From a virus, in IMG/VR virus record IMGVR_UViG_3300045988_175607, positions 111,956-175,955 of that record: a stretch of DNA of 64,000 nucleotides. The stretch is one strand, 5' to 3'. Position numbers and translations under genes: made by a program. Under the pieces are notes generated by a model that saw only the letters and a program-made list of their open reading frames with translations, ran no database searches and was not told the DNA's origin. Each line of letters opens with the position of its first letter. Position 1 is the stretch's first letter. This document shows positions 30,887 to 50,331 of this stretch, in pieces.

Positions 30887-30925
30887 AGCAGAAGTTTTTT
30901 GACTTCTGCTATTTTTTTTGTTATA
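30887..30925 (+). terminator. rho-independent terminator
   Basis: aagcagaagttttttgacttctgct plus attttttttg. Confidence 0.6.
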
Positions 30926-31012
30926 ATTAATATAGGCCAAAAGTGAATAAAAACTAACCACGAAATTTTATATTTTATAGATATAAGATTAAGAGAAAGG
31001 AGTTTTATATTT

Positions 31013-31603
31013 ATGGCTTAGAAAAACTATCCTAATCGAGATTATAATTTCGACGCTGATAATTTTAATGATATATTTAAAAGGCTTGAAAAACTGCGCG
31101 CGGCGCATTATGCGGGCAATGACGCTGGGTCTACCGCCCGAGCACAATTAGCTGATTCTTTTAAAACAAATATAGTTTCAGATAATACCCGTGGCGAAGG
31201 TGAAAATGCTAGCGATACAAGTAGTCCACATAATTTATTAAAAAACTATTTGCTTAAATTATAGACAAGTGCTTTTTTATCTGATAAAGTAAGTAAAGAT
31301 GATATATATAATTTAGAAATCCCCCTTGCCGATGATTTAATTAATGCTAATGAATATGATAATGTCATTGATATAATAAGTAAAATGGAAGGAGAGCCTT
31401 CTACTTATACTAATCATCATGCAGGATATAGTCCAGTTTATAAATGTAATGCGCATGATAATAGCGCGAATTATAATGATGAACGTTATCAAAATAATCA
31501 AAATATAAGAAATACAGAATGTGTTGGCACTGGAAAATGGTATTCAGATTTTCTTTTTCCTAATGGAAAACATAGTTGTACTTGGGGAGTAGATTACTCA
31601 TAA
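31013..31603 (+). CDS. precursor-like protein A1 (197 codons) upstream of two radical-SAM genes; in-frame TAG at codons 3 and 84
   Basis: ATG 31013 after agagaaaggag; MA-TAG-KNYPNRDYNFDADNFNDIFKRLEKLRAAHYAGNDAG... continuous with ORF-track 31385-31603; N-terminal region homologous to 37693-38316. Confidence 0.6.
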
Positions 31604-32866
31604 ATGATTTTAAGTTTAATTACATCTAATTCATGCAATCAAAAATGTTCATATTGTTATTTGCATAAAAATCCTGCTTATCAAGAACAAGATAAAAAGC
31701 TTTTACAGGCATTAGATGATGGTAGTTTTTTCAATAATATTATGAATACCATTCACTCTTTACACTATGACGTAAAAGATTTTGATACACTTGATTTTTG
31801 GGGTGGTGAGCCTACCCTATATTTTGATCAAGAAGATTATTTTGTTGACCAAATATTATATAATTTTCCTAATATAAATAAAATCGCATATTCGACAAAT
31901 TTTTCTACAATAGATCAACAGATAGATTTTATTAAGTATTTTAATAACTACATTCGTCATCTGGATTTATCCATTCAAATTTCTTATGATGGAATATTTA
32001 ATAAAATTACCCGTGGGGTTGATCCAAAAGAAATAAAGGAAAAATTAAAGCAATTTGTTTTCTTTTTAAATAAAGTTTATTTTAATAATTTAACTGTAAC
32101 AATTAATTTAAAAGCAACACTGCCTTGGGCTTTTTACCTTCAGCTTTGCACTGATGTAGAAAAATATCAAGAGTATTTAAAACACATTCAAGAATTACAA
32201 AAATATTTTGAAGCTCTTTCTTTGAATAAAAATGTTTTTTTGCGTATTAGTGATTCTATGATTTATCCTACCACAACCTCTCCTACTCATTACACTCAAG
32301 AAGATGGTAGACAATTTGCGCTTGGGGCTTATAATTTATATTTACATAATTTGCCCAATATACCTTTGCGCTTGGTAGAAAAATCTTTTAATGAGCCTTC
32401 TGATTATTGCGGACATATGACAAGGCAACTTTTATTTAAATACGATGGCACTCTGTCTCCTTGCCCCGCAGGGTTTATGGATGATAATGAGGCCAATCTT
32501 AAATGGTTAAAAGAAAATGACCCAGAAGAATATAAACAATTATTAAAAAGTAAATATCTTAGTAAAGAACACGATTATATTATTAGATATGTGGCGCAAG
32601 ACCTTAGAACGTCAGAGCTAACTTTTGTTATGAGTCAAATGTATGATTTGGCGCAAGCCGGCCTAATTTCTCCAGTGTATAAAGATAATGAGGCCGTGAG
32701 GTTCCGACATGCGCAATATTTAATTAACCTTCATTCCTGTTATTACTGGAATTTGCGCACTTCCGGCAGTTTATTCACCTTTTGGAATGATAATATAAAA
32801 TTATTCTGCAATGGATTGTTTGAATTTTATGATTGGATGAAAAATAATGGAACAGTATCAAATTGA
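31604..32866 (+). CDS. radical SAM enzyme (CX3CX2C, GGEP motif), cassette 1 first maturase-like gene
   Basis: SCNQKCSYCYLHK then FWGGEPTLYF; homolog of 38321-39667. Confidence 0.75.
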   Translation: MILSLITSNSCNQKCSYCYLHKNPAYQEQDKKLLQALDDGSFFNNIMNTIHSLHYDVKDFDTLDFWGGEPTLYFDQEDYFVDQILYNFPNINKIAYSTNFSTIDQQIDFIKYFNNYIRHLDLSIQISYDGIFNKITRGVDPKEIKEKLKQFVFFLNKVYFNNLTVTINLKATLPWAFYLQLCTDVEKYQEYLKHIQELQKYFEALSLNKNVFLRISDSMIYPTTTSPTHYTQEDGRQFALGAYNLYLHNLPNIPLRLVEKSFNEPSDYCGHMTRQLLFKYDGTLSPCPAGFMDDNEANLKWLKENDPEEYKQLLKSKYLSKEHDYIIRYVAQDLRTSELTFVMSQMYDLAQAGLISPVYKDNEAVRFRHAQYLINLHSCYYWNLRTSGSLFTFWNDNIKLFCNGLFEFYDWMKNNGTVSN

Positions 32867-34244
32867 AAATAATAAATTATTAACTTCTTTTATAGAAAGA
32901 CATTATTACAATGATCCAAATAAAGGAATTGAATTGTTCGTGCGCGCAAAATGTCCATCTAATTGTGTTTATTGTTATTTTAAAAAGTATGGTTGTGAAT
33001 TATATCCAGAAGATAAGCAAACTGATGAACAAATATTAAACAATTTAAATATATTTTTAGATTATTATATTAAAAAACAATTTACTAAAGATATTTCCTT
33101 ATTCTCTGGCGAGTTTATTATTGATGGATTATTTGGGCAAATTATGCAAATCTTTTATGATAAATTTACTAATCAATATTATAAACCTCGTGCAATAATA
33201 ATTTCTGATGATGGAGACTTTATTTCATATCCAGAAAAAATCCAAGAGGTAGAAGATTGGATTGCGCGACTGGCTTCAATAGGCATAGGTTTACATTTTA
33301 GTTTATCAGTTGATGGTAAATATATGGATATGAATCGTTCGCGGTCTCAGCGCACCGATGAGTATTACAAAACTCTTATTGATTTTTGTGATAAACACTT
33401 TTTTGCATTTCACCCAATGGTAAGTGCTTTCAATATCGACAAATGGATTGAAAATTATGATTGGTGGAAAAGTGTCCTTGATGATTTTCAATTTTCGCGA
33501 CTTATGTTACTTGAAGTGCGCGATGATAATTGGACAAATGATAAGATTCAAGAATACCTAAAATTCTTAAATTATGTTATTGAGGATAATTTTAAAAATC
33601 GTTATCATGGTAATCGCGAATTAATGGCGCAAAGAATTACTAATCAATTGTATTATACTACAGCTTCATATGATCCGCTTACCATTCCTTGCTTCTTAGA
33701 TGAAGATGGTCGCGATTATTTTGGTATGTGTTGTACTATAAAAACTAATTTGTGCGTGCGCTTAGGTGACCTTGCGATTGTACCTTGTCACCGCACCGCC
33801 TATCCGCAATTTGTCAATGGACATTTTGAAGTAATAGATGGAAAAATAAAAGGTATAGTTTGTGAAAACTACGAAATTCTTTCAGCTATTGGATCGTGGA
33901 ATCGTAATAGCGCACCTCGATGTAATTCCTGCAAAATAAAACAATGGTGTAGTGGAGGATGCCTTGGTTCTAATTTTGAATCAACTCATGAATTATTTAT
34001 TCCTCCTAAAACTGTATGTAATTTTATGCAGGCTAAATATAAATTTTTAATAATGAAATATGAAGATATGGGGTTGATGCCTTATATCAAAAACCATTTA
34101 TCTGAATTTCAATATAAATATATAGAAGATTATATGGATGTTTTATCCAAGGAGATTTTAATATATGGACGAGTTTTATCAGATAGAATCAATGATGCGC
34201 AAAATCAAGGAAAGTCTATCAGCCAATTCGTCAACCTTAGTTGA
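32847..34244 (+). CDS. radical SAM / SPASM-domain enzyme, cassette 1 second maturase-like gene
   Basis: KCPSNCVYCYF (CX3CX2C), FSGEF; C-terminal SPASM Cys cluster CCTIKTNLCVRLGDLAIVPCHRT...CNSCKIKQWCSGGC; homolog of 39633-41114. Confidence 0.75.
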   Translation: MEQYQIENNKLLTSFIERHYYNDPNKGIELFVRAKCPSNCVYCYFKKYGCELYPEDKQTDEQILNNLNIFLDYYIKKQFTKDISLFSGEFIIDGLFGQIMQIFYDKFTNQYYKPRAIIISDDGDFISYPEKIQEVEDWIARLASIGIGLHFSLSVDGKYMDMNRSRSQRTDEYYKTLIDFCDKHFFAFHPMVSAFNIDKWIENYDWWKSVLDDFQFSRLMLLEVRDDNWTNDKIQEYLKFLNYVIEDNFKNRYHGNRELMAQRITNQLYYTTASYDPLTIPCFLDEDGRDYFGMCCTIKTNLCVRLGDLAIVPCHRTAYPQFVNGHFEVIDGKIKGIVCENYEILSAIGSWNRNSAPRCNSCKIKQWCSGGCLGSNFESTHELFIPPKTVCNFMQAKYKFLIMKYEDMGLMPYIKNHLSEFQYKYIEDYMDVLSKEILIYGRVLSDRINDAQNQGKSISQFVNLS

Positions 34245-34410
34245 TTTCGTAGAATTGAGCAAAGCTTATTGGCTGACTAGAAAATATTGTGATGATAGCT
34301 TTCTTTCAGAAAGCATTGAAAGATTATTTTTTGATATTATTCAGTTACAATATGAATATGACCTTTTCCACGATGAAGAAATTCGTAAGGCCATATTAAG
34401 TTTTTATTGA
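34165..34410 (+). CDS. small protein (~80 aa) after the rSAM pair, homolog of 41086-41325; candidate partner or chaperone protein
   Basis: Shared (R/K)KYC(D/S)(D/S)S..E.IE.L motif; start uncertain (overlaps upstream gene by 80 nt). Confidence 0.4.
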   Translation: MDEFYQIESMMRKIKESLSANSSTLVDFVELSKAYWLTRKYCDDSFLSESIERLFFDIIQLQYEYDLFHDEEIRKAILSFY

Positions 34411-34484
34411 TTTTTTATAAAATTTATTATATAATATAATATGAAGAAAGAAGTTGAAAAGAAACTTTTTTCTTCATAATTTTT

Positions 34485-34574
34485 GTGGGGTTGGCAGAGT
34501 TTGGTTTAATGCATCGGCCTTGAAATCCGACGAGCGTAAAAGCTCCGCTAGTTCGAATCTAGCACCCCGCGCCA
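34485..34574 (+). tRNA. tRNA-Ser(UGA), type II with long variable arm
   Basis: GTGGGGTTGGCAGAGTTTGGTTTAATGCATCGGCCTTGAAATCCGACGAGCGTAAAAGCTCCGCTAGTTCGAATCTAGCACCCCGCGCCA; anticodon loop CUUGAAA. Confidence 0.65.
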
Positions 34575-34590: not shown

Positions 34591-35133
34591 ATGAAAATTG
34601 AGAATATATTCAAGCATCTACATCTTATTAATAAACACAGATGGTTTGTTTTTAAACGATGTTGTAAAGCGGGAATTTTATTGCAGGGGTTAACTCATGA
34701 TTTGTCTAAATATTCTCCCGTTGAATTTTGGGAATCGGTAAAATATTATAATGGAACTAAAAGCCCAATAAGTCAGTGCAAGGAAGAAAATGGCTGGAGC
34801 GCGGCTTGGCAGCATCATAAAGGTCGCAATAAACATCATTATCAATATTGGATAGATACTCCTGCGGTCGATGGCACTTTTAATTTTATAAAGATGCCGT
34901 ATAAATATGCGCTTGAGCTTATTTGTGACTATCTTGGTGCAGCGCAAGCTTATTTGGGAGATAAGTTTTCTTATGAAGCTGAATACGAATGGTGGATTAA
35001 TGAAAATTCTCTTGCTATGCATCCAGATACTTATAGTTTTATTAATACTATGCTGTTTACTATGAAAATGTCAAACAGTGACGATTGTTTACAAAGAGAC
35101 AAAAGTCTTCAAATTTATAATAGTATTTCCTAA
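34591..35133 (+). CDS. His-rich hypothetical protein (180 aa)
   Basis: THDLSKYSP...WQHHKGRNKHHYQYW; RBS gggaggata. Confidence 0.5.
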   Translation: MKIENIFKHLHLINKHRWFVFKRCCKAGILLQGLTHDLSKYSPVEFWESVKYYNGTKSPISQCKEENGWSAAWQHHKGRNKHHYQYWIDTPAVDGTFNFIKMPYKYALELICDYLGAAQAYLGDKFSYEAEYEWWINENSLAMHPDTYSFINTMLFTMKMSNSDDCLQRDKSLQIYNSIS

Positions 35134-35560
35134 AAATAATGAATATCCTTGGCCTAAGCCTTTTAAATTTATTATAGCCTTTTTAAAACTTAATAGGATT
35201 ATAGGGTTAAGGAGGATTATTAAAATGGCAGTGTCTCTTTATTAGCAAAATAATAAAATTTCATATGGCGTCAGCCGGTTTGTTTGTGATACAGAAGAAG
35301 ATTTAAAAAAGATTCGTGCGCCCAAACCCGGCAGCACCGCATATGTAATTGAAAAAAAAGAAGTTTATATAATGGGCAATAAAAATGTTTGGCATAGTAT
35401 GACTGGCAATGGTTCTTGTGATTGTAATTGTGTCAGTGAACTTACCATATGGGATGATATTAAAGCTTAATTGTTACAAAAGTTTGACATTTTTGTAATA
35501 ATTTGGTAATATATTTTATATAAAATAAAATTTTATTTTGAAAGGATTTTTAAGTTTAAT

Positions 35561-36418
35561 ATGAAGAAAATCTTTAGTGCAATTCTTTGCGTAATTATGA
35601 TTCTTGGTTGTACCTCCGTTGCCTTTGCTACTGGTTGGGGCAAGCTGGAGGAAAATGATACTACTTGTGAAAATTATAATATAAATCTTTATAAGCTTGA
35701 GCGAGTTGTTGGTGTAATGGGCGAGGCCTTTAAGGTTGTGCCTGATGCAACTGCCAAGGTTGGCGATGTAGTTTACTTTACTGGCTATGCTCTTGGTGAA
35801 AATGCTATTAATGCTATGATTCTTGCTTTTACTGAGGAAGATTATGTACTGACTGATCTTGCTAATATTAAGGCCGAAGGTTCTATCACTACTGATGACC
35901 TTGGTGGTGTTATGCTACCCGTGTTCTCAGCTCGTGTAACTGGTAACAATCCTAATGTTTCTGTTACTATTAAGTCTGGTAATGATGTTATGAAGTGCTT
36001 CTATAAGGGCCAGCCGGTTGTTGCTTCTAAGGATGCTCGTGAGGTTACTCTTGGTGAGTATAAATTTATTCGTGATGAGCTGAATGTTGTAACTGAGGTT
36101 TGGTATAATGGCGTTCAGATTACTCCTGTGATGAGCAAGGAAGAGTGGGATAAGTCCACCGCTGGTCTTGTTGAGCTTGGCATAACCATGGATGCAGTTA
36201 AGGCTCGTCAGATTTATATGAGCAATGAACATCTTGTAAGGAACTTTAGTAATTACAAGGAAATTACTAAGATTATAACTTGGGGCGCCAATACTGCCGT
36301 AGTGCCTGTAAATCCTGCACTGCCCCAGACTGGTGATATGTCCACTCTGAGCATTGCGCTCATGGCTATATTTGCTGCGATTGTAATTATTGGTGTTCGT
36401 AAGATTAACGTTCATTAA
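35561..36418 (+). CDS. secreted LPXTG-type cell-wall-anchored protein (sortase substrate)
   Basis: N-terminal signal peptide MKKIFSAILCVIMILGCTSVAFA; C-terminal LPQTG, hydrophobic stretch, then RKINVH positive tail. Confidence 0.7.
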   Translation: MKKIFSAILCVIMILGCTSVAFATGWGKLEENDTTCENYNINLYKLERVVGVMGEAFKVVPDATAKVGDVVYFTGYALGENAINAMILAFTEEDYVLTDLANIKAEGSITTDDLGGVMLPVFSARVTGNNPNVSVTIKSGNDVMKCFYKGQPVVASKDAREVTLGEYKFIRDELNVVTEVWYNGVQITPVMSKEEWDKSTAGLVELGITMDAVKARQIYMSNEHLVRNFSNYKEITKIITWGANTAVVPVNPALPQTGDMSTLSIALMAIFAAIVIIGVRKINVH

Positions 36419-36572: not shown

Positions 36573-37295
36573 ATGAGTAAAGTATTAAGCATAGATTTGG
36601 ATTGGATATTGGGAGATTGTATATCATTATATAATGATTTAGTAAGAGGAAATATCCCAATGTTAGAATTATGGGAAGAAATAGAAAAAGAGCGGCATTG
36701 CGAATCATTCTTGTCATATGACAAGGCGCATTTTGAGCAATTAAAAAAACTTGTTGTTAAATTAAAACCTAAACAAGTTTATTGGGGGAATGATCATAGT
36801 TCTATTATTTTAGCTATTAAGGATGCAATGGATAAAAAAATAATATCAGCGCCTTTTGTTTTATATAATATAGATCATCACCATGATATTAATTATTCAC
36901 CACAGCAGGAAGAGGCAGTTGATAAATATGATGTAGCTAATTGCGGGTCTTGGATTGCTTATTTAAACAAATATGAATTGATTGATGAATATTTTTGGAT
37001 TAAAAATAAATATTCAACAGATTATCATGGTCAAAAGCAATTTTCACCAAAACGACAAGAAATTGAATTAAAAAAACAAGACACTTTAAATTTTTTATTT
37101 AATGAAGATTTTGATATTATTTATATCACTTCTTCTGACTGTTATATTCCCCCTAAGTTCTATAATATATTAGATGATTTTAAAAAAATGGTTTTATATT
37201 ATTATCCAAATCTAATTGATTATGAAAATCAAACTTCTCATGGTACAATGGTTTATACTTCAAATTATTTTAATAATTGTAAAGGAGTAAAATAA
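36573..37295 (+). CDS. hypothetical protein (240 aa)
   Basis: ORF after a conserved promoter-like element at ~36480. Confidence 0.5.
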   Translation: MSKVLSIDLDWILGDCISLYNDLVRGNIPMLELWEEIEKERHCESFLSYDKAHFEQLKKLVVKLKPKQVYWGNDHSSIILAIKDAMDKKIISAPFVLYNIDHHHDINYSPQQEEAVDKYDVANCGSWIAYLNKYELIDEYFWIKNKYSTDYHGQKQFSPKRQEIELKKQDTLNFLFNEDFDIIYITSSDCYIPPKFYNILDDFKKMVLYYYPNLIDYENQTSHGTMVYTSNYFNNCKGVK

Positions 37296-37692: not shown

Positions 37693-38316
37693 ATGGCTGG
37701 ACGCTATACTTTAGCCCAAGCTTCTGATATAAATAGTGTTTTTTCTAGACTTGAACAGCTAAGACGAGCTCATTATGAAGGCGCAGGCCAGACAGCAGAA
37801 GGAAAAAATGCCTTAGCTTCTACTTTTTAGACTGCTCCTGTGGTTCAAACATCTACTATTGAAGAGCCATATACTTTAATGAAATCTTACTTGAACGCTT
37901 TACGAAAAAGCGTCTTTTTAACTACTGTGACAGAAGAGCAAATTAATGAAGTCACAGTTCCAGAAGCTGGAGCATTAATTGAGTTTGCAAATTTAAATGT
38001 TGCAGAAAATTTAGTAACAACTTTAGAAAGTAAACCCTCAAGCTATACAACAAATTTTAGTGGACACCATACAACAAATTTTAGTGGCCACAATTCCTCA
38101 GATTTTGGAACAGATTTTTCTTGTTTTATGCATAATGGTTCAGATTTTTCCCCTGAACCAACTTTTTCATCATCTTTTAGAGTATGTACAAAATGCTTTA
38201 AACCTTTCCAAGATTGTTTTAGTAGTCATAGAACTTCAGCATTTGGCAATTCATCTTCATTTGATATATCAGATGGAATACAACATTCTAGGGTGTCATT
38301 CGGTATAGGATTTTAA
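37693..38316 (+). CDS. precursor-like protein A2 (208 codons) with in-frame TAG at 37828-37830; Ser/Phe-rich repetitive C-terminus
   Basis: MAGRYTLAQASDINSVFSRLEQLRRAHYEGAG...STF-TAG-TAPVVQ...; C-terminus TTNFSGHHTTNFSGHNSSDFGTDFSCF...SDFSPEPTFSSSF; N-terminal region homologous to A1. Confidence 0.6.
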
Positions 38317-38320
38317 TAAA

Positions 38321-39667
38321 ATGGAACAAAAAAAAGTTTTAGGTATTATAAGTGCAGCAAAATGCAATTTAAATTGTAGTTATTGTTATTTACATAAGAA
38401 TCAATCTTATATTGAAGAAGATAAAAAAATTATTGCAGCAATGCAAGATGGTTCATTTTTAGCAAATATTAAGCGCAGTCTTTACGCTTTAAATGAATCT
38501 TATAATAATTTTTATCGATTAGAATTTTGGGGAGCAGAGACTTCATTACATTTTATTGATGGGTCAGATTTTTTTAAAGATTTAATATTAACTTTTCCAA
38601 AGTTAGAAGAAATAGCTTATTCCACTAACTTTCGGACGGGCAATGAGCAACACTTACATTTAATTGATTTGATAGAACAATATGCAGAGCAACGTGTTAT
38701 ACTTGAAATGCAAATCTCTGTAGATGGGCCAACAGCAATATTACAAAAAACTCGTCATTATAATTATGAAGATTTAGAGAAAGATGTAATTGACTTTATT
38801 GATATTCTTAATAAAAAGAAATTAAAGAAAACAAAAGTTGTAATTTCTTATAAATCAACCCTTCCTTGGAGCCTTTATCATGAGATATGTTCTTCTACTT
38901 CTGGATTAGTTGATTATTTAGATTTTTGGTCAAATACTGAAAATATGATGTGGGATAATGTAATTAATAAAAATGTTGCTTTCAGTACTGGTTCTTGTTT
39001 TGGGCCAGCTCTTGAATATCCTTATAGCTATACAATTCAAGATGGATTAGATTTTTCAGCTTTTGCGCAAAAAATTGATCGATTAAAATTAGACGAAAGA
39101 TATAATCGACCATCTAATATGCCTTTGCTAACAAGTGGTTTTGTAAAAGAACGTGAACTTCAAATTTATGAATTTTCTGGTTTTCAATGCGGTCAAATGA
39201 ATTCTAATCTTTTGTTTAGATATGATGGGACTCTTTCTCCTTGTTCAAATGGTTTTTTAGATCGATCAATAGACAATTTAAATTGGCTTAAAGAAAATGA
39301 TCCAGTAGAATACACTCATGTTTTAAATACTCGTAAATTAAGCACTACTGTCGATGAGAATGGTCAGGCTGATTTAGATGATTTAATAAAAAAAGTGCGG
39401 CATCGTAAAGAGTTTTGGAAATATCATGCTGATACTGTTGTAAGTATTACAAATTCTGAAATGTATGAATTAGCTATGGCACGACAAATTTCACCTATTT
39501 ATGCGAAAGATTCAGCTTTACGTTTTAAACATAGTCTTTTTATTGTAAAAAAGAATGCTTGTTATTTTAGTAATTTGCGAGAAACAGGCAGCCCCTATAC
39601 GCCTCCAGAAAGCTTAATAAAATTATATTGTAATGGATTGGGAGAATACCATGAATTCAGAAGATAA
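38321..39667 (+). CDS. radical SAM enzyme, cassette 2 first maturase-like gene (paralog of 31604-32866)
   Basis: AAKCNLNCSYCYLHK; shared AYSTNF, LLFRYDGTLSPC, NLNWLKENDP blocks. Confidence 0.75.
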   Translation: MEQKKVLGIISAAKCNLNCSYCYLHKNQSYIEEDKKIIAAMQDGSFLANIKRSLYALNESYNNFYRLEFWGAETSLHFIDGSDFFKDLILTFPKLEEIAYSTNFRTGNEQHLHLIDLIEQYAEQRVILEMQISVDGPTAILQKTRHYNYEDLEKDVIDFIDILNKKKLKKTKVVISYKSTLPWSLYHEICSSTSGLVDYLDFWSNTENMMWDNVINKNVAFSTGSCFGPALEYPYSYTIQDGLDFSAFAQKIDRLKLDERYNRPSNMPLLTSGFVKERELQIYEFSGFQCGQMNSNLLFRYDGTLSPCSNGFLDRSIDNLNWLKENDPVEYTHVLNTRKLSTTVDENGQADLDDLIKKVRHRKEFWKYHADTVVSITNSEMYELAMARQISPIYAKDSALRFKHSLFIVKKNACYFSNLRETGSPYTPPESLIKLYCNGLGEYHEFRR

Positions 39668-41114
39668 AATATTGACTTATTTAGATTCAAACCAACAGGA
39701 AAGAAATGCTTTATTAAATAGCTTTCTTGAAAGATATTTTTATCAAAATTTTCGTGAAGGGGAAAAGCCAGCCGCTTATCGTGCCGTTGAACTTTTTATT
39801 AAAGGCAATTGTCCAAATAATTGCGCTTACTGTTATTTAAAACGGCATGGTAAAGAATTATATCCAATTAATGAACAGTCTAATGAACAAATATTAAAGA
39901 ATATTAAAATCTTTTTAGATTTTTATAAAAAACAACATTTTAGAACAGAATTTTCTTTATTTTCATCAGATTTATTTAAAGATGGTTTTATTTATGATGT
40001 ATTAGATGTTTTTTATGAAGAATTTAAAGACAAATATAATCCTTATCGTCCCATTAGTATTATGATTCCAGACCATGGAAATTTTCTTTATTCTCAAGAA
40101 GAAACTGATAAATTACAGGGCTATATTGATAAATTCTTTGATATTAACTTACGCATTATAATAAGTTTATCAATAGATGGAAAATTTATGGATCAAAATC
40201 GCGGTGATGCTTCGCGCACTGATGAATTTTATCAACGAGCCATAGAATTTGCTTCTAAGAATTTTTATGCATTTCACCCGATGGTAAGCGCCATTAATAT
40301 TGATAAATGGATTGATAATTATGATTGGTGGCATAGTAATGAAGTTCCTGCTCATCTTGCTGATCGCTTAATGATGTTAGAAGTACGTGATGATAATTGG
40401 ACTCCAAAAGCGCTTAAAGATTATCTTAATTTTTTAAATCATGTTATTGATGAAGAATTTGCGCGTACAAATTATGATAAAGCTTTATTTGCAAAACGTG
40501 TTGTAGGTAGCGATAAATATCCTGGAAAAGGATATGATAATATTCTTCTTATACATACTCTTAATCCAGTAACAGAGTGCGATTTCGCAAGTACAGGATG
40601 TTCTGTCGCAAAAAATTTATGTGTAAGAGCTGGGGATTTAGCTATTGTACCTTGTCATAGAACTTCTTATGAACAATATGTGATAGGTAATTATGTAGTA
40701 GAAAATAACGAAATTGTTGATGTAAAATGTAAAAATTGGGAAATTGCTTCAGCGGTTTATTCTTGGAATCGCAATAGTTTTCCTCAATGTCCCGATTGCG
40801 CAATTCGATATTGGTGTGTTGGGCCTTGTTTTGGTTCAAATTTTGAGTCTACTGGAGACTTGTTCTGGACACCAATTTCAGTTTGTAATTTGTTTAAAGC
40901 AAAAACTCATTTTCAATTTATAAAATATGAAGAAATGGGCTTAATGCCGTATATTGAAAAAGAATTGGATGACGCAAACGCTTGGGACAAAATTAAAAAA
41001 CATATGGAAAAAATGAAAGGACAATTTGATAATTGTGGAGAATTGCTCATAGATAAAATCTCAGATACAATCAGACATCAAAAGAATGCAGGAGACGTTA
41101 AGTTATTCTCCTAA
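39633..41114 (+). CDS. radical SAM / SPASM enzyme, cassette 2 second maturase-like gene (paralog of 32847-34244)
   Basis: GNCPNNCAYCYLKR; AFHPMVSAINIDKWIDNYDWW; SPASM cluster CVRAGDLAIVPCHRT...CPDCAIRYWCVGPC. Confidence 0.75.
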   Translation: MDWENTMNSEDKILTYLDSNQQERNALLNSFLERYFYQNFREGEKPAAYRAVELFIKGNCPNNCAYCYLKRHGKELYPINEQSNEQILKNIKIFLDFYKKQHFRTEFSLFSSDLFKDGFIYDVLDVFYEEFKDKYNPYRPISIMIPDHGNFLYSQEETDKLQGYIDKFFDINLRIIISLSIDGKFMDQNRGDASRTDEFYQRAIEFASKNFYAFHPMVSAINIDKWIDNYDWWHSNEVPAHLADRLMMLEVRDDNWTPKALKDYLNFLNHVIDEEFARTNYDKALFAKRVVGSDKYPGKGYDNILLIHTLNPVTECDFASTGCSVAKNLCVRAGDLAIVPCHRTSYEQYVIGNYVVENNEIVDVKCKNWEIASAVYSWNRNSFPQCPDCAIRYWCVGPCFGSNFESTGDLFWTPISVCNLFKAKTHFQFIKYEEMGLMPYIEKELDDANAWDKIKKHMEKMKGQFDNCGELLIDKISDTIRHQKNAGDVKLFS

Positions 41115-41325
41115 TTTTGAAGAAAATATTGCAATGATTTATGCATTAAAAAAATATTGTTCTTCTGATAGCGAAATAGAAAAATTAATTGATTGTTATA
41201 TAAATATAGTATATAATAATTATATAGAAAAAAAGAAACTTGAAGCAACTCATTGCCCTTCCTTTTATTATATATCAGATTCTCAATATAATGAAGGAAT
41301 AATGAATAAACTATTGAAAATGTAA
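41086..41325 (+). CDS. small protein after cassette 2 (homolog of 34165-34410)
   Basis: LKKYCSSDSEIEKLIDCY versus TRKYCDDSFLSESIERLF. Confidence 0.4.
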   Translation: MQETLSYSPNFEENIAMIYALKKYCSSDSEIEKLIDCYINIVYNNYIEKKKLEATHCPSFYYISDSQYNEGIMNKLLKM

Positions 41326-41337
41326 GGATTAATAATT

Positions 41338-42243
41338 ATGATTAAAACACCTATTTGGAATATCGGTGGCGGAATAAGACATGGCCAAAATTTAATAAAT
41401 TATTTTATTGATCAAAAGCAGTTTTATGATACAACTCATAAGCTTTTTAATTATGTTTATGATTCTATTTTTGGATTAAAATGGAATGGTGGACGTGTTT
41501 GTATGCCTGAGCATACAAAAACTTTAAAAGATCTTTTTGCAGAAATTAGCACTTATAATGATTTAGGAGTTGGTTTTAATTGGAGTTTTACAAATCTTCT
41601 TTTAACTCCAGAGGATTTAAATGATGAATATTGTAATTTAGTTCTTGAAGCTACCAATAATTCTTTAAATGGTGTAATTTTAACAAGCGATATTTTGCGC
41701 GAACATGTGCGGAAAAATTATCCTAATATGCGCATTATTTATTCTGTATGTAATGGTTTAAAAACTATTGAACAGTATAAAAAAGCGTTGGATGAAAATG
41801 ATATTGTCGTGTTACATCCAGATTTTAATCATAATTATCCTTTTCTTACTGAACTTGCAAACGTAGGTGGCGCCAATAGAATAGAAGTAATGGTCAATGA
41901 TGTTTGTTCTTTTGGATGCCCCTTCAGAGAACAACATTATAAAAATCTTAGTATTTATAATAAAGTCCAATCTACATGTCCTATTATTCATGATAAAACT
42001 GAACTTGATTATGGTTCAGGTTTAGGATGTTTAGCGGTTCGTAATGGTTATAATAAAGATCATAGGAATAAGCTTTCTTTTACTGATTTAGATTATATGC
42101 TTGATTTGGGTTTTCAACATTTTAAACTTATTGGTCGAGAACATGAATGGCAATATTATTATGATGTTGATTTGCGGCCAAATCTTGAACAATATTGGGC
42201 AAGAAAGCTTGTCAAAGAATGCGGGCAACATTTACATATATGA
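41338..42243 (+). CDS. Cys-rich hypothetical protein (301 aa) downstream of cassette 2
   Basis: RBS aaggattaataatt; CSFGCPF...STCPIIHD...LGCLAV. Confidence 0.5.
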   Translation: MIKTPIWNIGGGIRHGQNLINYFIDQKQFYDTTHKLFNYVYDSIFGLKWNGGRVCMPEHTKTLKDLFAEISTYNDLGVGFNWSFTNLLLTPEDLNDEYCNLVLEATNNSLNGVILTSDILREHVRKNYPNMRIIYSVCNGLKTIEQYKKALDENDIVVLHPDFNHNYPFLTELANVGGANRIEVMVNDVCSFGCPFREQHYKNLSIYNKVQSTCPIIHDKTELDYGSGLGCLAVRNGYNKDHRNKLSFTDLDYMLDLGFQHFKLIGREHEWQYYYDVDLRPNLEQYWARKLVKECGQHLHI

Positions 42244-42446
42244 TGATTTTAAATTTTCATAATTGGGATTTTTCTTAGTCAAGAGAAATCCCAATTAAAA
42301 TTGAAGGATATACCTATATTCTTAATAGTGATTTAGAATCTGATTTTGATTTAATTAATAATAATACTTCTAAATTACTTTTTACAGAATTATTCCAAGA
42401 AATAAAAACAGTAGATTTAGCAATTTATCCTTATCTTTCAATAAAA

Positions 42447-42791
42447 TTGTTTGAAAATAGTGATTATATAGATTTGGGTAAAGTGCGCGAAAGCACTTGT
42501 CGTGTTATAGGATACATGGGCAGTACAAAAGATTATCATGAACAAGAGCGATTAAGTATTAAATTTGAATTTAAAAATCGTTTTATTATTGATAACGGCG
42601 GTTTAATTTATTGTGATACTCAAGAATGTCCTTTTTATGATAATGAATACTGTTTACGATATAAAACTGTATTGAAATTAAAAAATAATGAACCTATTGT
42701 ATGTAAACAATGTTTTATAAATATACAACCTTCAGTTTTTAATCAGTTGCAAAATGTAGCTTATCAAAATATGATAAAGAATAGGGAATAA
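42447..42791 (+). CDS. hypothetical protein (114 aa)
   Basis: ORF followed by terminator gggaataaaaaattccc plus T-run. Confidence 0.45.
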   Translation: MFENSDYIDLGKVRESTCRVIGYMGSTKDYHEQERLSIKFEFKNRFIIDNGGLIYCDTQECPFYDNEYCLRYKTVLKLKNNEPIVCKQCFINIQPSVFNQLQNVAYQNMIKNRE

Positions 42792-43770: not shown

Positions 43771-43852
43771 GGGGATGTAGCTCAGCTGGTCTAAGAGCGC
43801 TACTCTGATAAAGTAGAGGTTTTCGTTGGTTCGATCCCAACCATCCCTACCA
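43771..43852 (+). tRNA. tRNA-Ile(GAU) with an unusual 8-nt variable loop
   Basis: GGGGATGTAGCTCAGCTGGTCTAAGAGCGCTACTCTGATAAAGTAGAGGTTTTCGTTGGTTCGATCCCAACCATCCCTACCA. Confidence 0.6.
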
Positions 43853-43860
43853 CTTAATAT

Positions 43861-43934
43861 TGGGGAGTAGTTTAATGGTAGAACTTTCGGCTTTGACCCG
43901 AAGAGCGAAGGATCGTAACCTTCCTTCCCAGCCA
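43861..43934 (+). tRNA. tRNA-Gln(UUG)
   Basis: TGGGGAGTAGTTTAATGGTAGAACTTTCGGCTTTGACCCGAAGAGCGAAGGATCGTAACCTTCCTTCCCAGCCA; T-loop AUCGUAA is atypical. Confidence 0.6.
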
Positions 43935-44006
43935 GCTTCAAGGCGCTTGCAGCCAATATTTATATTCTTAATTTTTTCTATTGAATTTAATGCGTCTTGT
44001 ATTTTT

Positions 44007-44080
44007 GCCATTGTAACTCAGTTGGCCAGAGTTCCGCTCTTGTAAAGCGGGAGTCGTCAGTTCGAATCTGACCAATGGCT
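44007..44080 (+). tRNA. tRNA-Thr(UGU), CCA not encoded
   Basis: GCCATTGTAACTCAGTTGGCCAGAGTTCCGCTCTTGTAAAGCGGGAGTCGTCAGTTCGAATCTGACCAATGGCT. Confidence 0.65.
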
Positions 44081-44155
44081 CGACCGCATAAGCAAGCCTT
44101 CTCGTGGCGCGGTTGTTTTTAACTAATTGCTTATCCAAAAGAAAAGAAAAAATAA

Positions 44156-44542
44156 ATGAAAGGATTTGCGAGCAAAGCTCGCAAAAAGAAAATGAAGAAC
44201 TATCCTCTTTCTAAGTATCGTTTTTACCATGCAACGCGCGGAGGTCAGAAGCAGGTAATTGCTGTTTCTACTTATGCAGGAAAGACAGTGCGCGGTCGTG
44301 CGACTTGCGCTCCTGAAGATTCTTATGATGAACAGGCAGGTCGTGAGATTGCGGCAGCTCGTTGTAATCAGGAAATTGCGCGACGTCGTTATTTGAGAGC
44401 TTGTGCTCGTTATAATGAAGCGCAGCGGAAATATGAAGAAGCCATGGTATTTCTCAATCGTATGGGCGAATATCTTGATGATTCTCAGGCGGCATTTGTC
44501 GATGCTAAGATTTTGATGGATAATCTTCTTAACAAGTATTAA
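44156..44542 (+). CDS. Arg-rich hypothetical protein (128 aa) between tRNA genes
   Basis: GC-richer ORF; no motif recognized. Confidence 0.45.
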   Translation: MKGFASKARKKKMKNYPLSKYRFYHATRGGQKQVIAVSTYAGKTVRGRATCAPEDSYDEQAGREIAAARCNQEIARRRYLRACARYNEAQRKYEEAMVFLNRMGEYLDDSQAAFVDAKILMDNLLNKY

Positions 44543-44545
44543 AAA

Positions 44546-44590
44546 TTGATTTTTTAAAAAATTTATTATATAATATATATATAAAGTAAA
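44546..44590 (+). promoter_or_regulatory. conserved phage promoter motif
   Basis: TTGATTttttaaaaaatttattaTATAATatatatataaagtaaag. Confidence 0.5.
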
Positions 44591-44730
44591 GAAAAGATAA
44601 AAACAAATTGCGCAATGAGCGTTTGCGCGCATAAAGACGATCACAGCAAATTATGAAGCATTTAATTAGGGATTAAAAAAGCAAATATCGTCTTGTCGTT
44701 TAAATGTGCGGTTGCACATTTAAACTTCGT

Positions 44731-44807
44731 GCTCCGGTATTCCAACGGCAGAGAAAGTTGACTTAAAATCAACCAAGTGTGGGTTCGAATCCCACCCGGA
44801 GTACCAG
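44731..44807 (+). tRNA. type-I (short variable arm) tRNA with UAA anticodon (Leu-type anticodon, non-canonical architecture)
   Basis: GCTCCGGTATTCCAACGGCAGAGAAAGTTGACTTAAAATCAACCAAGTGTGGGTTCGAATCCCACCCGGAGTACCA; anticodon stem GTTGA/TCAAC, loop CUUAAAA, 5-nt variable region. Confidence 0.5.
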
Positions 44808-44946
44808 GCCTTTCGGCCAACAGAGACAGTATAAATTAAACATTAAGGCTTAACATTTTATGTTAAGTCTTTTTTTTTAATATTTGATTTTTAATAAAAA
44901 ATATTTTATAATATATATAGTAAATAGAAGCGAAACTTCTACTTAA

Positions 44947-45023
44947 CAGAGTGTGGCGCAGTTTGGTAGCGCGCTCGGTTTGGGTCCGAGAGGATTTCGT
45001 GAGTTCGAGTCTCACCACTCTGA
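44947..45023 (+). tRNA. tRNA-Pro(UGG), 8-nt variable loop, CCA not encoded
   Basis: CAGAGTGTGGCGCAGTTTGGTAGCGCGCTCGGTTTGGGTCCGAGAGGATTTCGTGAGTTCGAGTCTCACCACTCTGA. Confidence 0.6.
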
Positions 45024-45084
45024 GTCTTTCATGATATAAGCCTCCACGCGGCGAAAGATGGGTAATACTAATTATATCAATTAT

Positions 45085-45130
45085 TTGATTTTTTTATAAA
45101 AATATAATATAATATATTTATAGAAAGTAA
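45085..45130 (+). promoter_or_regulatory. conserved phage promoter motif
   Basis: TTGATTtttttataaaaatataaTATAATatatttatagaaagtaagg. Confidence 0.5.
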
Positions 45131-45144
45131 GGAGGTTAAAAGTA

Positions 45145-45411
45145 ATGGCACGTTCATACAAAAAACATCCTTATTGCGGCGCTCGCAAAAGCCGCTTCTA
45201 TAAAAATTATGCAAACCGACGTCTTAGACGACTTCCAGTAGAAGAAGAAATCCCAAGTGGCAAAGAGTATAAAAGATATAATTACAGTTGGAAGATTTGC
45301 GACTATTGGAGTTATCACCCTGGGCCTTTTCTTTATTTGCGCTGGCGCACTGAAGAAGAGGATGAAGAAATTGCATTTTGGCGTTGGTATAAAAATTGTA
45401 AAATGAAATAA
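45145..45411 (+). CDS. hypothetical basic protein (88 aa)
   Basis: RBS aaggaggttaaaagta. Confidence 0.5.
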   Translation: MARSYKKHPYCGARKSRFYKNYANRRLRRLPVEEEIPSGKEYKRYNYSWKICDYWSYHPGPFLYLRWRTEEEDEEIAFWRWYKNCKMK

Positions 45412-45886
45412 TTTTTGACTTTTTAAAAATTATTTGTTATAATATATATAAAGAAAAGGTAAAAAACCTTTCTTTAAAAGACGTCCCCGAAGATTGTTTT
45501 GCAAGGTATTCAACTTTATAAAGAAACTCTTGCTTTAACTTGTTGGGGATAGGGTCGGCCCCTATTACTAACTCCGGATTTAATTATAAAGGCATAATCA
45601 GCAAATTCTTATATAATAGCACATTTTTGTGGAGAAAAAATCATTTATGCCTTGTATCTTTTAATAAGAGCCATACAGCAAATTATTAATTAATAAGAAT
45701 TATTAATCAGGCTCTTGAAATATTCATTTTTTTTTATTTTTAAAAGCGCGTCAACTGCAAATTTTTTTTATGATTTACATTTAATTGGAGAGATTAATAA
45801 TTATCAAAATCGTCATAGCACATCGCGTTTTGTTTTTCCTTGATTTAATTATGTTAAATCGAGGATTTTTTTATAGGAGTAAAAAT

Positions 45887-46438
45887 ATGCCAATTAATAA
45901 AGGTTACTTATAGGCAAAAACAAATAAAGCATCAGATGAAGTTTATACTCCAGCTTATGCTATTGAACCTTTAGTAAAATATATTAAATAGTTTGAAAGC
46001 AGATTGAATAAAAAAATTACTATTTGGTGTCCTTTTGATTTAAAAAATTCTTGGTATGTAAAACTTTTTACAAGAGAAGGTTTTAATGTATTACATTCTC
46101 ATATTGATGAAGGAAAAAATTTCTTTTTTTATGAACCTTCTGAGAATTACGATATAATTATATCTAATCCACCTTTTTCACAAAAAGATGATGTTTTAAA
46201 AAGATTATATGAATTAAATAAACCTTATGCAATGCTATTACCAATTCCTGCCCTTTAGGGCCAAGCAAGATTTCCTTATATAAAGGATAATCTGCAATAT
46301 TTGGGATTTGATAAACGCATTAATTATTATACAAATCAAGATTTAACTCAGGTACAAAAGGGTGTTTCTTTCGGCTCTTGCTATCTTTGTAAAGGCTTTT
46401 TGCCCAAAGATTTAATTATTGAAGAACTGTTAATTTGA
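45887..46438 (+). CDS. N6-adenine DNA methyltransferase (DPPY/NPPF class) with three in-frame TAG codons
   Basis: DIIISNPPF catalytic motif and N-terminal EVYTPAYAIEPLVKYI; TAG at ~45911, ~45986, ~46256 (MPINKGYL-TAG-AKTN..., ...KYIK-TAG-FESRL..., ...IPAL-TAG-GQARF...); the ORF track shows only the 46004-46258 fragment. Confidence 0.65.
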
Positions 46439-46480
46439 TTTTTATTTAAAAATATATTATAATATATATATAAAATATTT
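46435..46480 (+). promoter_or_regulatory. conserved phage promoter motif; its -35 overlaps the methyltransferase stop codon
   Basis: TTGATTtttatttaaaaatatatTATAATatatatataaaatatttc. Confidence 0.5.
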
Positions 46481-46525
46481 CTTCTGTCCAGAAGAAATCA
46501 AAGAGAAAAAGGAGATTAAAATATT

Positions 46526-48013
46526 ATGAGTAATGCTTTCATAAATGGCCTGCGCGAAATGAGCAATTATACCTATACTGAGAATGGCGCTGTAAGCTTG
46601 CGGAGTACTCTTGATGCAGTTTACGATCTGTTTGCACTGGGTGCGGCGTATCGTCAGCGTAGCGAAGAAGATATTATAAATCTTTTTAAGAAAGCTTATA
46701 GGGAAAATGCGGAACTGGCTATGAAGTGCCTGTTCTATATTCGTGATGCGCGTGAAGGTCAGGGCGAGAGGCGCTTCTTCCGTGTATGCATGAATTGGCT
46801 GGCTAAGTCTGATGACCGTGAAGCTGCAAAGCGCAATCTTCAGTATGTATCTGAATTTGGCCGATACGATGATTTGTATTGTTTCATTGATACTCCTCTT
46901 CAGAATGATGCTCTTGAAATAATGCGTCAGCAGATAGCTCTGGATATGTCTTGTAAGACTCCTTCTTTGCTTGCAAAGTGGTTAAAGTCTATTAATACTT
47001 CCAGCGCAGAATCCCGTAAACTTGCTAACATTACTCGTGAATATTTTGGTATGACTCATAAGCAGTATCGCCGCACTCTGTCTATACTGCGTGAGCGTAT
47101 TAACGTACTTGAAAAACTTATGTCTGCCGGTGAGTGGGATAAGATTGAATTTGATAAAATACCTTCTCGCGCGGGACTTATATATCGCAATGCTTTTGCT
47201 CATCGAGATGTATTGCGTGAACGCTATGAAAAGTTTATAATGGATAAGAATACTAAGGTTAATGCTAAGGTGCTTTATCCTTATGAATGTGTTAAGAGCG
47301 CGCTCGATCATATAGACCACAAAATTTATGGTTGTGCAGATAAGCTTGAACGCGCCGCAATTAATAAGTATTGGGATAATCTCAGAGATTATTTCGATGG
47401 CGCCGCGTTTAATGGTATGGCTTTGGTTGATACGTCCGGTTCAATGACTATAAAGCGCAATTCCATAGCTCCTATCAATATTTCTATTGCTCTTGGACTT
47501 TATTGTGCTGAAAAGTGTTCTGGACCTTATGCTGGACATTTTATTACCTTTGAGTCCAATCCTCATTTTATCGAAGTGGAAGGTAAGGATTTTGTTGAAA
47601 AGGTTGAAAATATAAGCAATGCACCTTGGGGCAACAGCACCAATGTTGAAAAGGCTTTCGACTTGATGCTTGAAACAGCAATAAGGAATAATCTTTCTCA
47701 GAAAGATATACCTGAAAATCTTATCGTTATTTCTGATCAAGAATTTGATCAAACGGGCTACAATAATCGTATTTTTAATACTTTATGTGATGGTATCAAA
47801 AATAGGTGGAAGGCTGTTGGATATGAGATGCCGCATTTGGTATTTTGGAATTGTAATGCTCGACATGATCTGATTCCTATGAAAGATGATGGTAATGTTA
47901 CTTTTGTTTCTGGTGCAAGCCCCGTTATCTTTGAAATGATTATGTCTGGTAAAAAGGGCATTGAAGTAATGAAAGAGACGCTTGAATGCGAGCGTTACTC
48001 TTGCATTCATTGA
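46526..48013 (+). CDS. von Willebrand factor A (vWA) domain protein, DUF2828/TROVE-like (495 aa)
   Basis: MIDAS motif in MALVDTSGSM; ...VISDQEFDQ; N-terminal FGRYDDLYCF. Confidence 0.6.
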   Translation: MSNAFINGLREMSNYTYTENGAVSLRSTLDAVYDLFALGAAYRQRSEEDIINLFKKAYRENAELAMKCLFYIRDAREGQGERRFFRVCMNWLAKSDDREAAKRNLQYVSEFGRYDDLYCFIDTPLQNDALEIMRQQIALDMSCKTPSLLAKWLKSINTSSAESRKLANITREYFGMTHKQYRRTLSILRERINVLEKLMSAGEWDKIEFDKIPSRAGLIYRNAFAHRDVLRERYEKFIMDKNTKVNAKVLYPYECVKSALDHIDHKIYGCADKLERAAINKYWDNLRDYFDGAAFNGMALVDTSGSMTIKRNSIAPINISIALGLYCAEKCSGPYAGHFITFESNPHFIEVEGKDFVEKVENISNAPWGNSTNVEKAFDLMLETAIRNNLSQKDIPENLIVISDQEFDQTGYNNRIFNTLCDGIKNRWKAVGYEMPHLVFWNCNARHDLIPMKDDGNVTFVSGASPVIFEMIMSGKKGIEVMKETLECERYSCIH

Positions 48014-48079
48014 CAAAAATAAAAATTTTTGTTATAATATATATGTTAAATAAATGGGAATGAAAAATTCCCATTTTGA

Positions 48080-48153
48080 TGCGGGCTGGTGAAATGGTAG
48101 CCACAGCGCTCTCTAAAAGCGCCTTTTTCTGAGTTCAAGTCTCAGGCCCGCCG
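48080..48153 (+). tRNA. suppressor tRNA with CUA anticodon (reads UAG)
   Basis: tGCGGGCTGGTGAAATGGTAGCCACAGCGCTCTCTAAAAGCGCCTTTTTCTGAGTTCAAGTCTCAGGCCCGCCG; anticodon stem GCGCT/AGCGC, loop CUCUAAA, T-arm CTGAG/CTCAG; acceptor pairing imperfect in my hand fold. Confidence 0.6.
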
Positions 48154-48270
48154 CGGTATCATGTAGGGGCCTTTTCGTGGCGATACTATTTAAACTAATT
48201 CTACTAAACTCTCAGTATTTTGCTGAGAGTTTTTTTTTATTAAAAATTTATGATATAATATTTATAGAAA

Positions 48271-48513
48271 ATGAAAAAGGAGTTATATAAAAATATGGCC
48301 GTTAATTCTACTCTTGCAAAAGAAACTATAATTAAGGTTCTTACTCACTATCCTGTTTGTACGACTAAAGAAATTGCAAAATTTGCTTGGCAGGCATATG
48401 GCGTTGATATGACTCCCGCTTCAGTCAGTAGTCAATTGCGCTCGATGCGTAGCACTGCAAAAATTGGTAGCTCTAAAAACGAATATGGCGCAACAGTTTA
48501 TTGGCTTAATTAA
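48271..48513 (+). CDS. hypothetical protein (80 aa)
   Basis: RBS aaaaggagttatataaaaat. Confidence 0.5.
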   Translation: MKKELYKNMAVNSTLAKETIIKVLTHYPVCTTKEIAKFAWQAYGVDMTPASVSSQLRSMRSTAKIGSSKNEYGATVYWLN

Positions 48514-48525
48514 GGAGAATTAAAA

Positions 48526-48675
48526 ATGTCCAAGAGAAAACACAACGTAATAACTGTTTGTCCTCTATGTCATAAAAGTTTTGTTTACAGTAAATCTGAG
48601 ATTGAAATAATTGATGGATTTCATCTTATAAAGTGTCCTCATTGCGGCGAACATTTGGAGGTAAACCATGACTGA
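48526..48675 (+). CDS. zinc-ribbon small protein (49 aa; CPLCH...CPHCG)
   Basis: ATG 8 nt after aaggagaat; below ORF-track cutoff. Confidence 0.45.
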   Translation: MSKRKHNVITVCPLCHKSFVYSKSEIEIIDGFHLIKCPHCGEHLEVNHD

Positions 48676-50268: not shown

Positions 50269-50331
50269 GTATTGTCCTAATTGTGGAGCTAAAGTTGAAG
50301 TAACTTATGGCTTTAGAATTAGAAAACGAAG

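Follow-up and report, generated by a model that had tools for sequence, protein, structure and literature searches.

A putative radical-SAM protein maturation system in a TAG-recoded gut phage and its relatives in phages and ultra-small symbionts

The analysed window, 64,000 nucleotides of the IMG/VR virus record IMGVR_UViG_3300045988_175607 (positions 111,956 to 175,955), comes from a TAG-recoded phage of ~175 kb whose host is a Gram-positive gut anaerobe and carries, at positions 31,013 to 34,410, a four-gene cassette (cassette 1) that encodes a putative precursor protein, two radical S-adenosylmethionine (SAM) enzymes, denoted A and B, and a small protein, S. Cassette 1 appears to be one of three paralogous copies of a maturation system in which A and B modify the C-terminal core of the precursor, likely by introducing crosslinks, and the product would play a role in conflicts at the cell envelope; taken as a whole, this reading has, in our estimate, an even chance of being correct. 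The A-B system is previously undescribed and represents a large, uncurated family with an essentially obligate A-B pair. No description of such an enzyme pair in phages or in the candidate phyla radiation (CPR) was found in the literature, and the family databases used here (Pfam 2025, NCBIfam 20, PHROGs v4 and PADLOC v2) do not cover the system.

Enzymes of the cassette and their putative substrate gene

The first-pass annotation of this region, made from the sequence alone, described four co-directional, tightly packed genes, and this arrangement is borne out (Table 1): the ATG of A1 begins on the base right after the TAA codon of the precursor gene, the reading frames of A1 and B1 overlap by 20 nt, and those of B1 and S1 overlap by 80 nt. 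The unit is bracketed by a promoter-like site and two hairpin/T-run sites, all of which are consensus matches only and no proof of function. As reported, a tRNA-Ser gene, with the anticodon UGA, directly follows. The two in-frame TAG codons described for the precursor gene are present, and its length comes to 196 sense codons plus TAA (197 codons had been given). The probability of a chance run of 196 codons without TAA or TGA at ~32% GC is, by our own estimate, roughly 1e-5, and the protein is conserved in relatives, so this open reading frame (ORF) is not a chance one.

Both enzymes possess the defining features of the radical SAM superfamily, and B also those of the SPASM-domain enzymes, in agreement with the initial assignments that were based on the motifs CNQKCSYC and GGEP in A1 and on CPSNCVYC and a C-terminal cysteine cluster in B1. 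In A, the residues C11/C15/C18 and W66-G67-E69 (WGxE) are invariant among 98 non-redundant sequences, and the score against PF04055 is 38.6 bits, above the cutoff of 29.5. Exactly three further cysteines (C269, C287 and C379) are invariant in the same set, which suggests a single twitch-like auxiliary site and not a SPASM domain. In B, the SAM-cluster cysteines C36/C40/C43 are invariant, with a PF04055 score of only 19.6 bits, and seven additional cysteines (C296, C314, C359, C362, C368, C372 and C391) are invariant among 34 sequences. Their spacing reproduces the full SPASM motif (C...C, CX2CX5CX3C, C), which binds two auxiliary 4Fe-4S clusters. The SPASM assignment is accompanied by TIGR04085 scores just below the cutoff of 27 bits, namely 25.2 bits for B1 and 26.5 bits for B2, its counterpart in the paralogous cassette 2; the B1 and B2 proteins are 44% identical, and A1 and A2 are 37% identical.

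Comparison of the AlphaFold model of B (predicted local distance difference test score, pLDDT, of 90) with solved structures using Foldseek identifies radical-SAM enzymes with the probability of 1.0, the best matches being CteB (E = 9e-9), anSME, ChlB and SuiB. Profile searches against the PDB connect B with 8vpo, CteB and ChlB, and A with ChlB, CteB, anSME and SkfB. With few exceptions, the best NCBIfam matches of A and B are peptide maturases (PapB, which is the best match of B, GggB, YhhB, XyeB, GrrM, HxsB, QhpD and SCIFF), with scores of 10-57 bits against cutoffs of 170-855, so that no curated family cutoff is reached; Pfam, PHROGs and PADLOC yield only generic radical-SAM matches, including viperin-like ones on the radical-SAM core. 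Because the nearest families are peptide maturases and the scores are far below the cutoffs, the A-B pair is best described as an uncurated family of peptide- or protein-modifying radical-SAM enzymes. Thus, the enzymes are nearest to CteB, ChlB, anSME and PapB and not to cofactor enzymes, and the candidate substrate gene is adjacent to them.

The precursor consists of a conserved N-terminal domain (N-domain; residues 1 to ~130, ~130-150 residues long) and a variable core (residues ~128-196) that is rich in aromatic residues, Asn, Ser and Cys, with about 45-70 hypervariable residues. Core 1 contains four cysteines; the core of precursor 2, which is encoded in cassette 2, displays aromatic-Ser motifs of the NFSGH/DFS/CFS type. 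The reported N-terminal conservation between the two precursors is real but its extent was underestimated: the similarity spans ~128 residues (34% identity, E = 7e-20) instead of about 45. A profile search with the N-domain against 1.84 billion representatives retrieves no more than 90 proteins (E<=1e-3); the majority are 140-230 residues long and match at the N-terminus. Thus, this is not an ordinary domain with other partners, and it occurs almost only in the cassette architecture. Iterated profile searches link the N-domain of the window clade to ORFs that lie upstream in many other phage loci; precursor, S and D6, an accessory protein of cassette 2, have no match in Pfam, NCBIfam, PHROGs or PADLOC.

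The clearest indication of how the precursor is organised comes from a sister phage (locus L123). Here A and B are 98.6% and 98.5% identical to the enzymes of the window, and the flanking genes 96-98% identical. The precursors are 96-100% identical up to residue ~125 and 88% identical over residues 126-150, after which the identity drops to 36% and then to 4%: the tail beyond residue ~150 is replaced and is 30 residues longer than that in the window. Replacement of the core next to unchanged enzymes is the signature expected of leader-guided, core-tolerant maturation. This core swap between near-identical phages supports the original comparison of the locus with those for RiPPs (peptides made by ribosomes and modified after translation), and the cassette does combine a conserved recognition region and a variable core with adjacent modifying enzymes.

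Synthesis of the full-length precursor depends on reading TAG as a sense codon. The ORFs of the window lengthen under TAG read-through, the window encodes a tRNA with the anticodon CUA, and TAG and Gln codons are exchanged reciprocally between close relatives: at codon 84, precursor 1 has TAG in the window and L123 and CAA in L001 and L087, and at codon 33, the precursor 2 of the window has CAG where that of L001 has TAG. Together, these observations make it well supported that the phage reads TAG as Gln. All four relatives retain the TAG at codon 3 of precursor 1, which implies that full-length precursor 1 would be produced only once the phage suppressor tRNA is active. The A and B genes of the window phage contain no TAG, so the enzymes could be ready before the precursor.

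Spread of the A-B pair and likeness to known systems

More than 330 homologues of B were identified, and pattern-based scans delineate 79 viral loci and 35 genome loci; in essentially all of these ~115 loci, A lies directly upstream of B and often overlaps it. The sources include large uncultivated phages (100-200 kb), Clostridia metagenome-assembled genomes, CPR bacteria (Saccharibacteria and Parcubacteria), and DPANN or other archaea. Some of the contigs are clearly cellular, with genes for RNase Y or rpoB or two-component genes. There is no match to A in INPHARED (50,697 phage records) and none to B in PLSDB (72,556 plasmids). The only INPHARED matches of B are radical-SAM genes of Campylobacter phages (21% identity), which are solitary, occur in another context and do not represent the same system.

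In 71 of the 95 non-redundant pairs, the ORF upstream of A consists of at least 55% S/T/N/G/D/Y/H/C in its C-terminal two-thirds, and many of these ORFs contain tandem repeats (e.g., SSYD, HLSG, NGTKS, CxxxC or WSQGANGNG, with L015 as an example of a CxxxC-rich core); the precursors of the window clade are Phe-rich and fail this composition cut. The 71 family cores, which reach hundreds of residues in some relatives, contain 18% S, 12% N, 10% G, 10% F, 9% Y and 3% Cys, and the window cores share this composition. Aromatic residues in the family cores are embedded in a unit [S/G][N/D]-Ar-[S/T][S/T], with z of 11-17 compared to shuffled sequences; S/T is enriched at position +2 from the aromatic residue (z=11), and positions -2, -1 and +1 are equally patterned. 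In four family precursors (P0152, P0160, P0175 and P0195), the Tyr/Ser repeats are directly followed by a C-terminal Hint/intein-like domain that starts with a sequence of the C[FL]xxGTxIL type, which suggests that, in some relatives, the modified part may be released or transferred autoproteolytically.

The fourth gene of the cassette is less conserved. The presence of a protein of ~80 residues in both cassettes, noted originally, is recovered by iterated search, but the similarity is weak (18% identity between S1 and S2 in the alignment), and S is conserved only in the close clade. In environmental loci, the position after B, which S occupies in the window, is taken in 66 cases by an ORF for protein C (~180 residues), which L057 carries as a fusion with A and L013 as a fusion with B. 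In eight CPR/DPANN loci (L002, L088, L090, L094, L095, L096, L109 and L126), tatC and tatA adjoin the genes for the precursor, A, B and C; this linkage hints at export of an already folded or modified product.

Among characterised systems, the closest in architecture is the HXS antiphage system (HxsD-HxsB-HxsC-HxsA; Li et al., Nat Commun 2026; PMC13128918), in which two radical-SAM enzymes and the small protein HxsD mature HxsA, a 214-residue HxS-repeat protein that blocks phage DNA entry; the modification is a mass change of +8 Da and not -2 Da (PMC13128918). The two systems have in common two adjacent radical-SAM enzymes, one of them of the SPASM type, a small partner protein and a substrate of ~200 residues with short motifs of the aromatic/His-x-Ser type. 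HXS yields a protein that carries the modification, as opposed to a small peptide, and this product acts in phage-host conflict at the envelope. The differences are also substantial. A scores 24.6 bits against the HxsB model TIGR03978 (cutoff 370) and 14.3 bits against the HxsC model TIGR03977 (cutoff 268), no match to HxsA or to HxsD (PF27806) is found for the precursor or S, and PADLOC assigns no system to the cassette; because no Hxs model is matched, the cassette is not a member of HXS. Unlike HXS, the A-B cassette has the order substrate first, then the non-SPASM and the SPASM enzyme, no peptidoglycan-binding domain is detected in it, and the copy studied here is encoded by a phage. HXS is confined almost completely to Pseudomonadota (99.7%), in contrast to the A-B family of uncultivated phages and CPR/DPANN. 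The likeness is one of how the system would work, not of homology, and HXS is an analogue. In one locus, L006 (Colwellbacteria contig JAQTUL010000007.1), the A-B pair lies within a stretch of nine or more radical-SAM genes and beside a gene of the HxsD family (PF27806).

Two groups of peptide maturases show more limited likeness to the cassette. Triceptide synthases (3-CyFEs: XyeB, GrrM/OscB, FxsB, YhhB and ChlB) act on repeated aromatic-X-X motifs of the core (PMC11499958). The hallmark of the group is a crosslink from the aromatic residue to a C-beta, at -2 Da per motif. For both A and B, ChlB is one of the top matches of known structure, and families that form cyclophanes recur among the NCBIfam matches. 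Across the family cores, S/T is enriched at +2 of the aromatic residue, but the patterning at -2, -1 and +1 is just as strong, and for window cores 1 and 2 the register is not significant. The scores of 12-30 bits against the cyclophane-synthase families (XyeB, GrrM, FxsB, YhhB, AmcB and others) are 10- to 20-fold below the cutoffs of 310-450 and thus do not place A or B among these synthases, there are two enzymes instead of one, the leader is ~130 residues long, and some family cores lack aromatic residues. In the case of the SCIFF/ranthipeptide and sactipeptide maturases (CteB, PapB and SkfB), the connection consists in CteB being the top Foldseek match and PapB the top NCBIfam match of B, in SkfB, a twitch-domain enzyme, being among the matches of A, and in the four cysteines of core 1. 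As opposed to these maturases, A and B have no N-terminal RiPP recognition element (RRE), most family cores contain few cysteines, and the scores are far below the cutoffs.

Proposed mechanism and alternatives

We infer the chemistry and the role of the product from these comparisons as follows. A and B, possibly together with S, would dock on the conserved N-domain of the precursor, and 5'-deoxyadenosyl radicals generated by A and B would then modify the core. The most likely modifications are intramolecular crosslinks, either triceptide-type aromatic-to-side-chain C-C cyclophanes or Cys thioethers, or both, and the result would be a rigid, protease-resistant C-terminal module of diverse sequence. 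Suppressor tRNA activity would gate production of the full-length precursor, and the TAG-free enzymes could be made before it. A modified protein, and not a small peptide, may be what the system produces. By analogy with HXS, and given the dedicated TatAC linkage in the CPR/DPANN loci, it would most likely be located at or outside the cell envelope and be involved in conflict, such as superinfection exclusion or inhibition of competitors; a metabolic role is unlikely.

Several observations weigh against this scheme. The AlphaFold2 model of precursor 1, built from an alignment of 8 sequences, has a pLDDT of 40, with the N-domain helical at low confidence and the core disordered, so that a helical docking domain can be proposed only tentatively. 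In window cores 1 and 2, the aromatic-x-Ser/Thr register (z of about -1 and 0.7, respectively) is not above the level expected from composition, and core 1 is not repetitive. There is no RRE or PqqD match for S, A or B, and a fused RRE in A or B is ruled out by their short N-termini (CX3CX2C starts at residue 11 in A and at residue 36 in B); neither is there a protease or exporter match among the scanned cassette proteins, so the RRE plus leader protease/exporter set that is part of the general description of RiPP loci is not detected in the cassette. The interpretation of S as a short form of protein C is rejected in the absence of detectable homology (hhalign probability 1.4%). Homology of the N-termini of the CPR/DPANN type to the N-domain of the phage type is not shown, and for the CPR-type 'MAFSWTEDI...' sequences it is not supported by hhalign (probability 0.4%). 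Likewise, A and B contain up to 10-11 TAGs in other recoded phages, so a general rule of TAG-free enzymes and a TAG-bearing substrate is rejected, and the lack of TAG in A and B is specific to the window phage. Finally, the biological role is assigned by analogy.

The same system could perform a different chemistry, namely conversion of Ser or Cys to formylglycine as in anSME, epimerisation, or an HXS-type +8 Da adduct at a few sites. This is unlikely, although there are points in its favour: both enzymes have anSME, which belongs to the same SPASM fold class as B and acts on a full-length protein, among their top matches by structure and by sequence; the family cores are rich in Ser; HXS, the closest architectural analogue, shows a change of this kind; and some family cores, such as those with NGTKS repeats, contain no aromatic residues. 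Against formylglycine formation, scores with the anSME model TIGR03942 are only 10-29 bits, far below the cutoff of 349, the C/S-x-P/A-x-R motif is absent, and no sulfatase gene is seen in the neighbourhood of the cassettes; furthermore, the crosslinking enzymes CteB, ChlB, SuiB and PapB match equally well. A classical small RiPP, in which the leader of ~130 residues is cleaved and lysis sets free a short modified peptide, for example a bacteriocin, seems improbable. The leader/core logic with its hypervariable core, the RiPP maturases that make up all the nearest enzyme families and the Hint-like self-cleaving domains of some relatives, which point to processing somewhere in the family, fit such a product, but known RiPP leaders are far shorter than this one, neither a protease nor a transporter is detected in the cassette, the cores of relatives extend to hundreds of residues, and HXS provides a precedent for a modified protein as the end product.

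The precursor could instead be a component of the virion, for example a fibre, with the N-terminus attached to the particle, the C-terminus in contact with the host and the radical-SAM enzymes hardening or shaping the tip. TAG codons are found in fibre-like genes of the window as well (e.g., 60992-62110), receptor-binding proteins likewise combine a conserved N-terminus with a C-terminus that is swapped, a Laminin_G_3 domain is fused in front of the leader-plus-repeat module in L118, and cassette 3 adjoins genes that, by reading of their translations, resemble lysis genes. Nevertheless, the system is also present in CPR/DPANN contigs of cellular origin, near TatAC, RNase Y and rpoB, no PHROG structural matches are found, the predicted core is disordered, and the cassettes are embedded among tRNA and auxiliary genes, which makes a virion role rather unlikely. 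The hypothesis that the upstream ORF is unrelated and that A and B act on a nucleotide, sugar or cofactor could be raised because of the fusion of A to a glycosyltransferase in two CPR loci (L002 and L090) and the generic viperin-like matches on the radical-SAM core. It is scarcely tenable given the synteny with a low-complexity protein across very divergent lineages, the fact that the nearest relatives are all peptide or protein modifiers, and the core swap beside unchanged enzymes.

Further cassettes, neighbouring genes and implications

Table 1. Cassettes 1 and 2 and associated features of the window
Feature	Coordinates	Strand	Remarks
Terminator-like hairpin/T-run	30887-30910	+	upstream of cassette 1; overlaps promoter-like site; consensus scan
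Promoter-like TTGACT-17-TATAAT	30899-30927	+	upstream of cassette 1; consensus scan
Precursor/substrate protein 1 gene	31013..31603	+	196 sense codons + TAA; TAG at codons 3 and 84; AAAGGAG ribosome-binding site upstream
Radical-SAM enzyme A1 gene	31604..32866	+	420 aa; CNQKCSYC, WGGEP
Radical-SAM/SPASM enzyme B1 gene	32847..34244	+	465 aa; CPSNCVYC
Small protein S1 gene	34165..34410	+	81 aa; own AAGGAG ribosome-binding site
Terminator-like hairpin/T-run	34440-34478	+	closes cassette 1; consensus scan
tRNA-Ser(UGA)	34485-34574		directly after the cassette-1 terminator-like hairpin
Cassette 2 (paralogous)	37693-42791	+	precursor 2, A2, B2, S2, D6, D7
Precursor/substrate protein 2	37693..38316	+	207 aa; TAG at codon 46
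Radical-SAM enzyme A2	38321..39667	+	448 aa
Radical-SAM/SPASM enzyme B2	39633..41114	+	493 aa
Small protein S2	41086..41325	+	79 aa counted from ATG 41086
Accessory protein D6	41338..42243	+	301 aa; absent from cassette 1
Accessory Cys-rich protein D7	42195..42791	+	~183-198 aa, start uncertain; one TAG
tRNA, anticodon CUA (suppressor)	48080-48154	+	needed to read in-frame TAGs of both precursors

Cassette 2 includes two accessory genes, D6 and D7. In D6, C190 and C194 are invariant and C231 is nearly so; related gut-phage loci contain 51 ORFs for its homologues, which often stand in tandem, and D7 co-occurs with D6 in close clades. D6 has no family match and no convincing PDB match; the sole PDB match, to 5d88 with E=0.42, does not support the guess that it is a U32-like protein. 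A third A-B pair is present in the near-identical 175-kb contig JALFQD010000409.1 and in an IMG/VR contig. This cassette 3 (L112, 1709-6380; also L051) starts just past the end of the window, after a homologue of the gene at 62996-63838, and has the order 210-residue S/T/N/Y-repeat precursor, small ORFs, A, a 96-residue ORF, and B. By reading of the translated sequences, the genes that follow it look like those for an endolysin and a holin.

Between cassettes 1 and 2, the plus strand encodes a DUF5662 protein (34591-35133; 5.6e-32) and a protein with a weak similarity to UPF0489 (36573-37295; 1.5e-5, just under the cutoff), both of which are conserved in sister phages. Also in this interval, the protein encoded at 35561-36418 (plus strand) begins with a signal-like segment and has, at its C-terminus, an LPQTG sortase motif and then a membrane anchor; it has no family match, and points to a Gram-positive host. 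Two small TAG-containing genes on the plus strand (35228-35470 and 60556-60984) share the N-terminal module 'F(V/I)CDTE.DLK.I...GS.A.V.E'; the second of these precedes the fibre-like gene at 60992-62110, which contains three TAGs and whose product looks beta-helical, judging by the sequence. The region 43771-55085 is an RNA/translation island with five tRNA genes (43771-45023), the tRNA(CUA) gene, a gene for a DUF2828+DUF7788 protein (46526-48013) and an RNA ligase gene (53688-55085); the gene at 50399-51607 resembles that for serine hydroxymethyltransferase, as judged by reading the sequence. Farther downstream, an 813-residue protein resembling the major vault protein is encoded on the plus strand at 56367-58808 (Pfam MVP_shoulder, 7.6e-20; Vault_3 repeat, 2.4e-10).

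It is only lately, through HXS (2026), that maturation of whole proteins, as opposed to short peptides, by radical-SAM enzymes has been connected with phage-host conflict. The A-B pair is separate from HXS and much more widespread, is analogous in logic, and is carried by phages and ultra-small symbionts. The cassettes provide a defined set of substrates and enzymes for new radical chemistry on sequences rich in aromatic residues, Ser and Asn, and the natural core swap under unchanged enzymes is useful for engineering. Given the conservation of the codon-3 TAG, stop-codon recoding would gate the substrate of a maturation pathway. A broader proposal, which we consider possible but doubtful, is that these proteins form a new, widespread class matured by radical-SAM enzymes, with recognition domains of ~130 residues, hypervariable crosslinked tails and a twitch+SPASM enzyme pair, which would be common to huge gut phages and CPR/DPANN, the phage versions being TAG-gated, HXS-like envelope effectors. 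If so, the phage versions would be a viral counterpart of the HXS 'DNA-entry gatekeeper', expressed late and either excluding competing phages or acting on neighbouring cells; an arms race would account for the presence of three diversified copies per genome, and the versions of the episymbionts would travel with their own TatAC exporter.

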